Origin: a virus
Lineage: Duplodnaviria; Heunggongvirae; Uroviricota; Caudoviricetes
Virus record (IMG/VR): IMGVR_UViG_2526164609_000012
Reading direction: 5' to 3' (one strand)
DNA length: 16,518 nt
The first letter of the stretch is position 1. The number at the start of each line of letters is the position of its first letter. The notes beneath the pieces are model-generated. The model was not told where the DNA came from, made no database searches, and was given only the letters and a program-made list of their open reading frames with translations. A program made the position numbers and the translations under genes. This document shows, piece after piece, positions 3,081-8,875 of this stretch.

Positions 3081-3641
3081 GTGCTGACAACGCAAAAACG
3101 AAAATTTGCGCTGGCGCTCATGTCCGGGAAAAACAAAACAGCGTCAGCCATTGCCGCCGGTTATTCGGCGAAGACCGCCAGGGTTAAAGGCTCGCAGCTG
3201 GCAAAAGATCCGGAGGTGCTCGCGTTTATAGCCCGTAAACAGTGCGAAACGGTGGAGGTGGATGAGGTTCCTGTTTACCGGCAGAAAAAATCAGAGCAGG
3301 AGGATAAACCCCGTCGCCGTGAGGCGGCTGCAATACCACAGCCGGACGAAAACAATCCGGAGATGCCACCGCCCGCGGTGATGTCTCATGGTATTGAATA
3401 TATGGAGGATGGTCTTCCCGATCCGGTGAAAGCTATGGGGCAGATCCTGGTGGAAAACCTCAGCATTGATCCGAAACTGGCACTGGATGCGGCCTGGCGA
3501 CTGGCGCAGTTCACACACCATAAAAAAGGCGATGCCGGTAAAAAATCGGCAAAAGGTGATGCCGCGAAAAAAGCGGCTAACCGTTTTGCGGTACCACCAC
3601 CACGACTGGTGGTGAATAACGATAATGAGGGCAACGGATGA
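3081..3641 (+). CDS. terminase small subunit
   Basis: 186-aa ORF, GTG start at 3081 preceded by GGAGGAGG. N-terminal HTH-like segment (KRKFALALMSGKNKTASAIAAGYSAKTARVKGSQLAKDPEVLAFI) typical of small terminase subunits; stop overlaps the large-subunit start (ATGA at 3638-3641). Confidence 0.8.
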   Translation: MLTTQKRKFALALMSGKNKTASAIAAGYSAKTARVKGSQLAKDPEVLAFIARKQCETVEVDEVPVYRQKKSEQEDKPRRREAAAIPQPDENNPEMPPPAVMSHGIEYMEDGLPDPVKAMGQILVENLSIDPKLALDAAWRLAQFTHHKKGDAGKKSAKGDAAKKAANRFAVPPPRLVVNNDNEGNG

Positions 3642-5299
3642 TACCTGTATGGAGCACGGCCTGCCCGGACTGGGCAGAGCGCCTGAAAAAGGGGCTGTCG
3701 ATTATTCCGGCTCCGATTTATCCGGACCAGGCCGCACATGCCCTGGCGATTTTTAAACAACTGCGGATTGTGGATGCACCGGGTAGCCCGACGTTCGGGG
3801 AGTCCTGTGCACAGTGGGTGTTTGACCTGGTGGCGGCTCTGTTTGGCTCCTACGATGCGCAGACCGGTGTCCGCCATATCAAGGAAGTGTTCATTCTGAT
3901 ACCCAAAAAAAACAGCAAGTCCACACTGGCCGCCGGGATCATGATGACGGCGCTGTTACTGAACTGGCGGCAGGCGGCGGGTTACACGATTCTGGCCCCG
4001 ACTGTGGAGGTGGCAGCCAACGCCTTCAATCCTGCCAGGGATATGGTACGACGGGACGATGATCTGGATGACCTCTGTCAGGTGCAGACACATATCCGGA
4101 CCATCACCCACCGGGTGACGGACACCACCCTGAAGGTGGTGGCAGCCGATCCGAATACGGTGTCCGGTATCAAGTCCGTGGGGACGCTGATTGATGAGTT
4201 GTGGCTGTTTGGCAAGCAGTACAAGGCGGAGGACATGTTACGTGAAGCCATCGGCGGGCTTGCCTCCCGCCCGGAAGGGTTTGTGGTGTATACGACCACC
4301 CAGTCGAATGAACCGCCCGCCGGGGTGTTCAGACAAAAACTGCAGTACGCCCGGGATGTGCGCGACGGCAAAATTAATGATCCGCACTTTCTGCCGGTGA
4401 TATTTGAACACCCTCCTGAAATGGTGGAAAGCGGGGCTCACCTGCTGATGGAAAACCTCGCCATGGTCATTCCGAATCTCGGCTATTCAGTGGATGAGGC
4501 CTTTCTGTACCGGGAGTACCGTAAAGCCCGGGAAGCCGGTGAAGAGACATTCCGGGGGTTCATGTCAAAACACGCCAATGTGGAAATTGGTCTTGCCCTG
4601 CGCTCTGACCGCTGGGCGGGGGCTGATTTCTGGGAAGAGCAGGGCCGTTGTATCAACCTGGACGATATCCTGCGTCGTGTTGATGTGGTGACGGTGGGGA
4701 TTGACGGCGGAGGGCTGGATGATCTGCTGGGGATGTATGTGATTGGGCGTGACCGGGAGACCCGCGAATGGCTGGGCTGGGGCCATGCCTGGGCGCATGA
4801 AACCGCGGTGGTCCGACGGAAGAGCGAGGCGTCCCGGTTTCATGATCTTGTTGCCTGTGGAGATATGACCATTGTCCGGCGTGTCGGGGATGACACGGCG
4901 GAAGTGGCGGAATATGTGCGTCGCATTCATGAGGCTGAGTTACTGGACCATATCGGTATTGACCCGTCAGGGGTGGGGCAGATTCTGGATTCACTGGCGG
5001 AAGCCGGGATCCCCGACGGAATTGTGGTGGGGATAAGCCAGGGCTGGAAACTGGGCGGGGCCATTAAAACCACCGAGCGCAAACTGGCTGAAGGGGTGCT
5101 GGTGCATGGTGACCAGCCCCTGATGGCCTGGTGTGTCGGCAATGCCCGGGTGGAGCCTAAAGGTAACGCCATTCTTATCACCAAACAGGCCAGTAGACGG
5201 GGAAAAATTGACCCGCTGATGGCGCTGTTCAATGCGGTCTCCCTGATGTCCCTTAACCCGGAACCGAAAAAGAAAGAATATGCGGTTTTTTTCATATAA
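3638..5299 (+). CDS. terminase large subunit
   Basis: 553-aa ORF. ATPase P-loop-like segment (FILIPKKNSKSTLAAGIMMTALLL) and a C-terminal nuclease-like region (VTVGIDGGGLDDLLGMYVIGRD); size and position after the small subunit fit. Confidence 0.9.
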   Translation: MIPVWSTACPDWAERLKKGLSIIPAPIYPDQAAHALAIFKQLRIVDAPGSPTFGESCAQWVFDLVAALFGSYDAQTGVRHIKEVFILIPKKNSKSTLAAGIMMTALLLNWRQAAGYTILAPTVEVAANAFNPARDMVRRDDDLDDLCQVQTHIRTITHRVTDTTLKVVAADPNTVSGIKSVGTLIDELWLFGKQYKAEDMLREAIGGLASRPEGFVVYTTTQSNEPPAGVFRQKLQYARDVRDGKINDPHFLPVIFEHPPEMVESGAHLLMENLAMVIPNLGYSVDEAFLYREYRKAREAGEETFRGFMSKHANVEIGLALRSDRWAGADFWEEQGRCINLDDILRRVDVVTVGIDGGGLDDLLGMYVIGRDRETREWLGWGHAWAHETAVVRRKSEASRFHDLVACGDMTIVRRVGDDTAEVAEYVRRIHEAELLDHIGIDPSGVGQILDSLAEAGIPDGIVVGISQGWKLGGAIKTTERKLAEGVLVHGDQPLMAWCVGNARVEPKGNAILITKQASRRGKIDPLMALFNAVSLMSLNPEPKKKEYAVFFI

Positions 5300-5324
5300 C
5301 CCTGTTCACACTGTAACCATCACG

Positions 5325-5350
5325 AACCGCTCCGGCGGTTTTTTTATTTT
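5325..5350 (+). terminator. terminator/attenuator-like hairpin after the terminase large subunit
   Basis: Stem AACCGC (5325-5330), loop TCCG, stem GCGGTT (5335-5340), then TTTTTATTTT; followed at once by the AGGAGG RBS of the protease. A near-identical hairpin recurs at 13659-13680. Confidence 0.4.
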
Positions 5351-7299: not shown

Positions 7300-7343
7300 G
7301 TCTGATAAGGAGGACGGGAGGCGAGCGCCTCCCGTAACAGGTT

Positions 7344-7565
7344 ATGGCAAAGATCCGATATCTGCAGGGCACGCATGATGCCCGGGCCGGGGATATCCGT
7401 GATGTGGCACAGCCGTGCGCGGAGGTGCTGGTTCGCCTGGGAAAGGCGGAGTACATCACGGTGCGACGTCCGGCAGGTCAGAAAAAGAAACGTGATGCGG
7501 AGCATGGCGAATGTGGAACCTTTTACAGCGAACCCGAAAAAAACAGAAATCAGGACGTGACGTAA
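7344..7565 (+). CDS. hypothetical small ORF between capsid and portal genes
   Basis: 73-aa ORF with ATG start and no recognisable motif; overlaps the portal start in another frame. Weak support. Confidence 0.15.
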   Translation: MAKIRYLQGTHDARAGDIRDVAQPCAEVLVRLGKAEYITVRRPAGQKKKRDAEHGECGTFYSEPEKNRNQDVT

Positions 7566-8875
7566 GAGAGGCGGGCTGGACCAGCCTGTTTCAGGCGGTG
7601 GCTGAGCCCTTTTCCGGCGCCTGGCAGCAGGGCGTGAAAGCCGATCCGGAAGCCGTCCTCTCCTTTCATGCGGTGTTTTCGTGCATTTCGCTGATATCCC
7701 AGGATATCGCCAAAATGCGGCTGCGTCTTATGCAGACGGATGCGCAGGGGATACGCAGGGAAACTCGACGGGGGGATATTGCCCGCCTCTGTCGTCGTCC
7801 CAACGCCCAGCAGAACCGCATCCAGTTTTTTGAACTGTGGCTGAACGCCAAACTGCGTCACGGCAATACGGTGGTGCTGAAAATCCGTAACTCCCGGGGG
7901 CAGATCAAAGAACTGCGCATTCTGGACTGGAGCCGGGTTGAACCACTGGTGGCGGATGACGGCGAAGTGTTCTACCGCATCACGCCGGACCGGAACTGCG
8001 GGATCACTTAGGCGGTGACGGTGCCTGCCCGGGAAGTGATCCACGACCGGTTTAACTGTTTTTTTCATCCGCTTATAGGGTTGCCGCCGGTGTATGCCGC
8101 CGGGCTGGCCGCCACGCAGGGGCATCATATTCAGGAAAATTCGACGTATTTTTTCAGAAATGGCGGCATGCCGTCCGGGGTGATTGAGATCCCCGGCAGT
8201 ATTACGGAAGAAAATGCGAAAAAACTGAAGAGCAACTGGGACAGCGGGTATACCGGCGAAAATGCGGGGAAAACGGCCATTCTGAGCAACGGGGCAAAAT
8301 ACAACCCCACGACGTTTTCACCGGTGGATGCGCAGACGGTGGAACAACTGAAGATGACCGCTGAAATTGTCTGTTCGGTGTTCCGTGTCCCGGCCTACAA
8401 GATTGGCGTGGGACAACCGCCTTCCAGTGACAACGTGGAGGCGCTGGAGCAGCAGTATTATTCCCAGTGCCTGCAGACGCTGATTGAGTCCATTGAACTG
8501 TTACTGGATGAGGCGCTGGAAACGGGGGAAAACGAGAGTACAGAATTTGATGTCACCACGCTGCTGAGAATGGACAGTGAGCGGCGCATGAAAACGCTGG
8601 GGGATGCGGTGAAAAATACGCTTCTCACGCCCAATGAGGCCCGTAAACGGGAGAACCTGCCGCCCCTGGCCGGCGGTGATGCACTGTATCTTCAGCAGCA
8701 GAACTACAGTCTGGAGGCACTGTCCCGTCGTGATGCCCGTGAGGATCCGTTCGCGTCGACCGGGAAAACGGCCTTAGCGCAACCGCCTGACGGCGCATCT
8801 GACGGTAATAAGGCAATCAGTGAAACAGAGCATGATGCGGTGAAAGCGATGTTCAGGGGGATTCTGAAAAAATGA
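7511..8875 (+). pseudogene. portal protein interrupted by an in-frame TAG stop
   Basis: ORFs 7511-8011 and 8015-8875 are in the same frame, separated only by TAG at 8009-8011. N-terminal piece (WTSLFQAVAEPFSG...AVFSCISLISQDIAKMRLRLMQ...DGEVFYRITPD) and C-terminal piece (NWDSGYTGENAGKTAILSNGAKYNPTTFSPVDAQTVEQLKMTAEIVCSVFRVPAYKIG) together look like an HK97-family portal of about 453 aa. Confidence 0.8.

Follow-up and report, generated by a model that had tools for sequence, protein, structure and literature searches.

Capsid-before-portal gene order in a decayed lambdoid prophage, shared with BP-4795/2851-type phages and their distant relatives

The head modules of phages HK97 and lambda begin in the same way, with the portal gene lying right after the large terminase gene. 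The HK97 record gives the order TerS, TerL, portal, protease and major capsid protein (MCP), and the lambda record gives Nu1, A, W, B (portal), C, Nu3, D and E. A different layout is found in phages BP-4795 (Marienburgvirus) and 2851 (Pankowvirus) and in the long-tailed phages of enterohaemorrhagic Escherichia coli (EHEC) that carry the Shiga toxin (Stx) types Stx1a, Stx2c or Stx2a, and the DNA studied here belongs with them. This stretch (the window) comprises the 16,518 nucleotides of the Caudoviricetes record IMGVR_UViG_2526164609_000012, whose + strand is the late region of a lambdoid prophage. An earlier note, made from the letters of the sequence, had called its head genes in the order TerS, TerL, protease-capsid and portal, and had set this order against the portal-after-TerL arrangement, which inspection of the two records confirms for HK97 and lambda. 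Since both have the portal right after TerL, the window does depart from the textbook layout. We hold, with a probability of roughly 0.93, that it is the ordinary head module of BP-4795/2851-type long-tailed lambdoid phages, present as a mutated copy riddled with insertion sequences (IS), and that its layout was inherited.

Matches to Pfam and PHROG profiles bear out both the gene calls of that note and their order. The complete order is HNH, TerS, TerL, protease-capsid fusion, small open reading frame (ORF), HK97-type portal, ORF2, Ad1 and Hc1, and the module contains the following features.

2425-2790, + strand: HNH endonuclease, partner upstream of the terminase (Pfam HNH, E 3.7e-8)
3081-3641, + strand: TerS, small terminase (Pfam Terminase_2, 36.1 bits; phrog_641, E 6e-66)
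3638-5299, + strand: TerL, large terminase, intact, 553 amino acids (TerL_ATPase and TerL_nuclease; phrog_9, E 1.5e-142)
5324-5341, + strand: terminator-like hairpin and T-run in the gap that separates TerL from the capsid gene (terminator scan)
5363-5761, + strand: 5' fragment of the protease-capsid gene, S78 protease domain (phrog_617 positions 7-115; phrog_80 protease)
5692-7299, + strand: 3' fragment of the protease-capsid gene, with the protease end, a coiled, scaffold-like linker and the HK97-fold capsid domain (Pfam Phage_capsid; phrog_617 positions 119-626, E 1.7e-203)
7316-7333, + strand: GC hairpin GGGAGGC-GAGC-GCCTCCC, with a 7-bp stem, a GAGC loop and AAGGAGG before it (fold energy -18.9 kcal/mol)
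7344-7565, + strand: small conserved ORF, 73 amino acids with a core of about 55 (phrog_829, E 8.9e-39)
7511-8011, + strand: 5' fragment of the portal gene, ending at the in-frame TAG 8009-8011 (Pfam Phage_portal profile positions 2-105)
8012-8875, + strand: 3' fragment of the portal gene, in the same frame as 7511-8011 (Pfam Phage_portal profile positions 111-321, E 1.2e-52)
8856-8860, + strand: run of five G (G5), 13 nt before the portal stop; G5 gives two genes, and six G (G6) in relatives give a portal-ORF2 fusion
8872-9933, + strand: ORF2, fibre-like, 353 amino acids, its ATG overlapping the portal stop (ATGA); coiled N-terminus, 162-bp repeat in 2.3 copies, C-terminal domain that may be CBM5/12-like
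9930-10256, + strand: Ad1 head-tail adaptor, a gp6-like connector (Pfam Phage_connect_1; phrog_40)
10266-10616, + strand: Hc1 head closure protein (Pfam Phage_HCP; phrog_25)

The relatives of this module keep its order. The segment 3081-9933 (6.85 kb) is matched, with at least 80% of its length covered and 90-98% DNA identity, in 91 phage records, including BP-4795, 2851, YYZ-2008, 1717 and dozens of Stx1a/Stx2c/Stx2a phages, and likewise in 1,244 of 5,426 complete E. coli genomes, where the median is four places per carrier genome. Using tblastn with nine module proteins, the same order was obtained in 90 of 90 close loci, with deviations due solely to contig ends; annotated records with intact genes in the identical order are those of E. 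coli AF14, Stx2_EH1846, phage 2851 and BP-4795. Relatives from Salmonella, Serratia and Pantoea, with about 75% capsid identity, show the same order and have neighbours labelled by Pfam. Beyond them, a search of 1.84 billion cluster representatives yielded more than 1,183 clusters at E <= 1e-30, and most of the best 150 cover the entire protease-capsid fusion. A scan of one genome per species through a protease-domain motif provided 80 distant loci with capsid identities of 37-76%, from Enterobacterales, Pseudomonas, Marinobacter, Rhizobiales, Burkholderiales, Xanthomonadales and Flavobacteriaceae, as well as from Actinomycete, Clostridia, Planctomycete and other metagenome-assembled genomes. 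With iterated profile searches a portal was detected in 75 of these loci, where it always lay downstream of the capsid gene, and in none of the 80 was a portal found between TerL and the capsid gene.

The synteny comparison that the earlier note had advised thus shows the order kept across 90 close and 75 portal-bearing distant loci. There is strong support for its suggestion that the lineage is arranged differently, given that close relatives keep the exact order with their genes intact, and this is the very finding that, in its own terms, would make the order a normal lineage feature. The layout goes back to the ancestor of a very large clade, which extends across bacterial phyla, and was therefore inherited by this prophage and not made in it. 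The capsid-first order is in fact already known, as it is present in long-published annotated genomes, and it is ordinary; full-text searches of the literature turned up no paper in which this gene order, or the portal fusion described below, is explicitly discussed.

A rearrangement or recombination event inside this prophage, with junctions at 5300-5362, 7300-7510 or both, had been the other explanation put forward. The prophage has indeed decayed through IS1, an IS66-family element, a frameshift and a nonsense codon, and hairpins are present in both gaps. However, a local event of this kind is contradicted by the order and gap lengths, which are kept in the 91 phage records, the 1,244 E. 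coli genomes and the 80 genomes of other genera and phyla. Moreover, when window positions 2173-11800 were compared base by base with the intact E. coli prophage L001 (9.6 kb, 97.9% identity, six small indels), no indel fell in 5300-5362 or in 7300-7510, and the scar that the earlier note had proposed to look for there was not found. The GC hairpin and the small overlapping ORF that it had seen in 7300-7510 are real (7316-7333 and 7344-7565), and the contents of the gaps, hairpins of varied stem and a small gene whose stop overlaps the portal start, are kept across genera. Being free of indels against L001 and conserved in content, both gaps are functional spacers and not scars, so that neither can be taken as a junction, and the idea that the order arose by rearrangement in this prophage is refuted, its remaining probability being negligible. 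It would be just as hard to believe that the supposed portal is something else, in which case the order would not be unusual. No support for this was found, the sole complication being that the unrelated ORF2 downstream is also labelled 'portal protein' in databases. Against it, the two window fragments cover the Pfam Phage_portal profile end to end, the intact homologue scores 349.5 bits with TIGR01537 (portal_HK97; cut-off 112), the protein is 27% identical to HK97 gp3 over 364 amino acids (BLASTP E 1e-24), and the gap between TerL and the capsid gene, just 63 nt, holds no other portal-like gene. The ORF called portal is, on these grounds, the portal.

A further alternative concerns deep history only and is compatible with the window being an inherited BP-4795/2851-type module. 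It proposes that the portal and protease-capsid cassettes were swapped in the ancestor of the clade at borders bounded by hairpins, which would persist as old module boundaries. This is possible, if doubtful: in HK97 a putative terminator follows the portal gene, the capsid gene and the major tail gene alike, the protease-capsid cassette of this clade has hairpins at either end, and the proteins are of HK97 type (portal 27% identical to gp3, protease domain 29% to gp4); on the other side, the upstream hairpin is absent from the alphaproteobacterial members, whose gap is 9-26 nt, and none of the 80 loci shows an intermediate arrangement, so that nothing can be inferred about the direction in which the order changed or about the mechanism. 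Several points have to be set against the inherited-module explanation and the working proposed for it. Sequencing errors, and not true mutations, could account for the single-base lesions at 5681 and 8009, and the variant with four G (G4) at 5681 recurs in 3 of 1,071 E. coli records. The 80 distant loci, having been fetched through the protease motif, sample this protease-capsid clade and not all HK97-like phages. Lastly, the hairpin at 7316-7333 has no T-run and is not a classic intrinsic terminator, and the role suggested for it below is drawn from position and conservation only.

Taking into account both DNA identity and synteny, the window can be classed as a BP-4795/2851-type late region in a defective copy. 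BP-4795, 2851 and the EHEC long-tailed Stx1a/Stx2c/Stx2a phages share with it 90-98% DNA identity, the gene order and the gap sizes. In those phages the capsid protein is encoded by one ORF of 645 amino acids and the portal gene is uninterrupted, whereas the window has a frameshift, a nonsense codon, IS1 and a truncation by the IS66-family element. ORF2 also differs in length according to the number of repeats, with 353 amino acids in the window, 407 in Stx2_EH1846 and 461 in BP-4795, and the portal fusion of 2851 reaches 859. The protein content, on the other hand, is that of an HK97-type module, and the gene order is not: the order TerL, portal, protease, capsid that defines the HK97 type was looked for and was found neither here nor in any relative examined, and the module is consequently not HK97-type by order. 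Shared with HK97 are the HK97-family portal, the S78 protease, the HK97-fold capsid, Ad1, Hc1, a gp10-like protein, and a hairpin or putative terminator after the capsid gene. HK97 differs in having TerS, TerL, portal, protease and capsid in succession, so that the portal and protease-capsid cassettes are in exchanged places, in encoding protease and capsid as separate genes, and in lacking an ORF2-like gene or a small ORF beside the portal. Lambda has in common with the window a lambdoid late operon and a small gene directly upstream of, and overlapping, the portal gene (W before B there, 7344-7565 here), and it departs from it in its portal right after the terminase, its S49 protease, its separate scaffold Nu3, its decoration protein D and its capsid E.

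The gene at 5363-7299 appears as two overlapping ORFs in the window and as a single ORF of 645 amino acids in the intact homologue. Its capsid part is recognised by Pfam Phage_capsid in the window fragment 5692-7299 (53.9 bits; cut-off 24.2) and by TIGR01554, the HK97-family capsid model, in the intact homologue (77.2 bits; cut-off 27.5). Residues 48-152 of the latter match Pfam Peptidase_S78 (34.7 bits; cut-off 21), and the protease region is 29% identical to HK97 gp4 (E 4e-8), although the stricter protease equivalog TIGR01543 was not reached (46.5 against a cut-off of 59). The score with NCBIfam NF045541, which describes prohead protease/major capsid fusions, was 54 bits, far from its cut-off of 525; the fusion shares the architecture of NF045541 but belongs to a different family. 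Capsid-and-protease fusion genes have been noted in genome announcements of actinobacteriophage clusters EE, AN and AU (PMC9671004, PMC6606914, PMC9753647); as here, protease and major capsid protein form one polypeptide there, while the hosts differ, and the comparison covers the fusion alone. About a dozen of the 80 distant loci encode protease and capsid in two adjacent ORFs, with the order unchanged. Two cluster representatives of about 1,090 amino acids, P0243 and P0252, carry an AAA ATPase domain fused before the protease-capsid protein, which could be either an artefact of gene calling or a real fusion.

Both gaps around this gene contain conserved hairpins. The one at 5324-5341 is followed by AGGAGG and then by the GTG start of the capsid gene, and elements of this type, with varied stems, occur in relatives from Enterobacterales, Pseudomonas, Marinobacter, Morganella and Diaphorobacter. 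The hairpin at 7316-7333 starts 17 nt past the capsid stop codon. Strong hairpins lie within 80 nt after the capsid stop in 74 distant loci, with a mean best folding free energy over 40 nt (dG) of -22.2, compared with -14.7 in coding windows from those loci, and 69% of them fall below the 5th percentile of this background. Their position, 0-25 nt past the stop, is conserved across phyla, their stem sequences are unrelated, and T-rich tails follow many of them, not all. HK97 is likewise annotated with a putative terminator directly after its capsid gene. In Enterobacterales, GGAGG stands 5' of the hairpin and the ATG of the small ORF 8-10 nt 3' of it, a geometry that is kept despite the differing stems. 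No known RNA family was detected by Rfam, at its gathering thresholds, anywhere in the window.

With regard to how such a module might work, it is proposed that all its genes would be read from one late transcript. As a single chain, the fusion protein would bring together protease, scaffold-like linker and shell subunit, assemble around the portal dodecamer and then trim itself. Expression is probably partitioned by the hairpin that follows the capsid gene, either through attenuation or through protection of the upstream RNA, and capsid subunits would then be made in large numbers, portal and connector subunits in small ones. The terminator after gene 10 of phage T7 has an expression-partitioning role of this kind. 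From the geometry described for Enterobacterales, it might be speculated that the hairpin also positions the ribosome-binding site of the small ORF. Tentatively, the capsid-first layout may represent a functional design of the whole clade, in which the hairpin would split the transcript into high-copy capsid and low-copy small ORF, portal, ORF2 and connectors, the Enterobacterales hairpin would bring GGAGG to the start of the small ORF, and a fibre-like ORF2 would be switched between split and portal-fused forms by G5 and G6; we consider this proposal, taken as a whole, less probable than its opposite.

The small ORF overlaps the portal start by 55 nt in the window. Its amino acid sequence is conserved in Salmonella, Serratia, Pantoea, Enterobacter, Kluyvera and others, with the pattern MAKIRYLQ.THD...C...LV.L.KA.Y and a basic C-terminus. 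In the Enterobacterales relatives its stop overlaps the ATG of the portal gene (TAATG or TGATG), and the 55-nt overlap is due to the loss of this stop in the E. coli lineage. A PDB profile search, Pfam and NCBIfam all gave no match for the protein, and the idea that it is an analogue of lambda gpW was ruled out by an hhalign probability of 0.1.

Members of the ORF2 family lie directly after the portal gene in 68 of the 80 distant loci, and the overlap with the portal stop is nearly always 1-14 nt. They have a conserved N-terminal segment of about 45 amino acids and a variable stalk, made of Pfam Collagen (GXY) repeats in some lineages and, in E. coli, of 27-amino-acid repeats (the 162-bp tandem repeat) in variable copy number. 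Their C-terminal domain is conserved too and may have a CBM5/12-like fold. No Pfam or NCBIfam family reached threshold with ORF2, and PDB searches gave weak matches only, to CBM-type and designed helical repeat proteins. Database entries mostly call it 'hypothetical protein' or else misassign it as 'portal' or as 'connector' (gp6-like); since some relatives have it joined to the portal, it has been widely mislabelled 'portal protein', as if it were the second half of the portal. In E. coli phages the G5 allele, with split genes, occurs in 46 of 82 related loci and the G6 allele, giving fusions of 807-861 amino acids, in the other 36, and both sit in modules with intact TerL and capsid ORFs. 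Among named phages, BP-4795 is split (G5) and 2851 is fused (G6). No portal-ORF2 fusion was found in the 80 distant loci. A programmed frameshift at the G-run is not supported, as a conserved slippery heptamer is lacking, haplotypes differ in the A-rich stretch ahead of the stop, and all 80 distant relatives use a plain overlapping stop and start. Some annotators call the fused or the split forms pseudogenes.

The description of the prophage as degraded stands in so far as the decay is real, but this decay consists of point lesions and IS insertions and not of a reshuffling of head genes. The capsid frame shifts at 5681 through a 1-nt deletion, leaving G4 where 70 of 70 relatives have G5 (or GGGGA). 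With just 3 carriers in 1,071 E. coli records G4 is sporadic, and a frameshift as a regular feature of the gene was rejected. In the portal gene, the codon at 8009-8011 is TAG and that of 82 of 82 relatives is GAG; the mutated 51-mer around it had no match in complete E. coli genomes. Taken with the IS load of the window, the lack of this TAG allele there suggests that the host was Shigella-like. TerS has a 3-nt in-frame deletion with respect to L001. Homology to this prophage ends at 13731, within the tape-measure gene, and the mobile elements of the region are as follows.

11799-12566, + strand: IS1, 768 bp, in the major tail subunit gene, with a 9-bp target duplication TAAATTCCT (Pfam InsA and IS1 transposase; inverted repeats located; absent from L001)
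14094-16193, - strand: IS66-family element with a transposase and a TnpB-like ORF (Pfam DDE_Tnp_IS66, TnpB_IS66)

Because of the capsid frameshift, the nonsense codon in the portal, IS1 in the major tail gene and the cut-off of the tail region by the IS66-family element, the module cannot work unaided here. The intact, functional structural genes of a BP-4795/2851-type late region are thus not found in this copy, which has the lesions at 5681 and 8009, IS1 and the loss after 13731.

These results have some consequences for the annotation of prophages. The capsid-first order should not be flagged as a rearrangement in prophage scans, given that it is visible in published annotated genomes, and pipelines or readers that expect terminase, portal, protease and capsid will misjudge a very common module, which roughly one complete E. 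coli genome in four carries, often more than once. The hairpin behind the capsid gene, the small ORF and ORF2, all of them uncharacterised, belong to the head module of Stx phages that are of medical relevance. If both the G5 and the G6 forms work, an undescribed portal-attached fibre or internal protein would be indicated.

Around the module, the lysis genes lie upstream.

50-583, + strand: lysozyme, lysis gene
862-1386, + strand: Rz, lysis gene

An HNH gene stands ahead of TerS and TerL in 62 of the 80 distant loci, as it does in the window. Genes for a gp10-like protein, a tail-completion protein, the major tail protein, a chaperone and the tape-measure protein follow 3' of Hc1. The possibility of a capsid-forming phage-inducible chromosomal island (PICI) was set aside in view of the lysis genes upstream and the full tail module downstream. 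Between the tail-completion and major tail genes there is a terminator-like GC hairpin with a T-run (11428-11442), beside which, at 11442, the length of a T-run differs by 1 nt from L001, and HK97 has a putative terminator at the equivalent position. The end of the window, 16240-16518, holds the start of an IS3-family orfA, which we take to be IS911-like.

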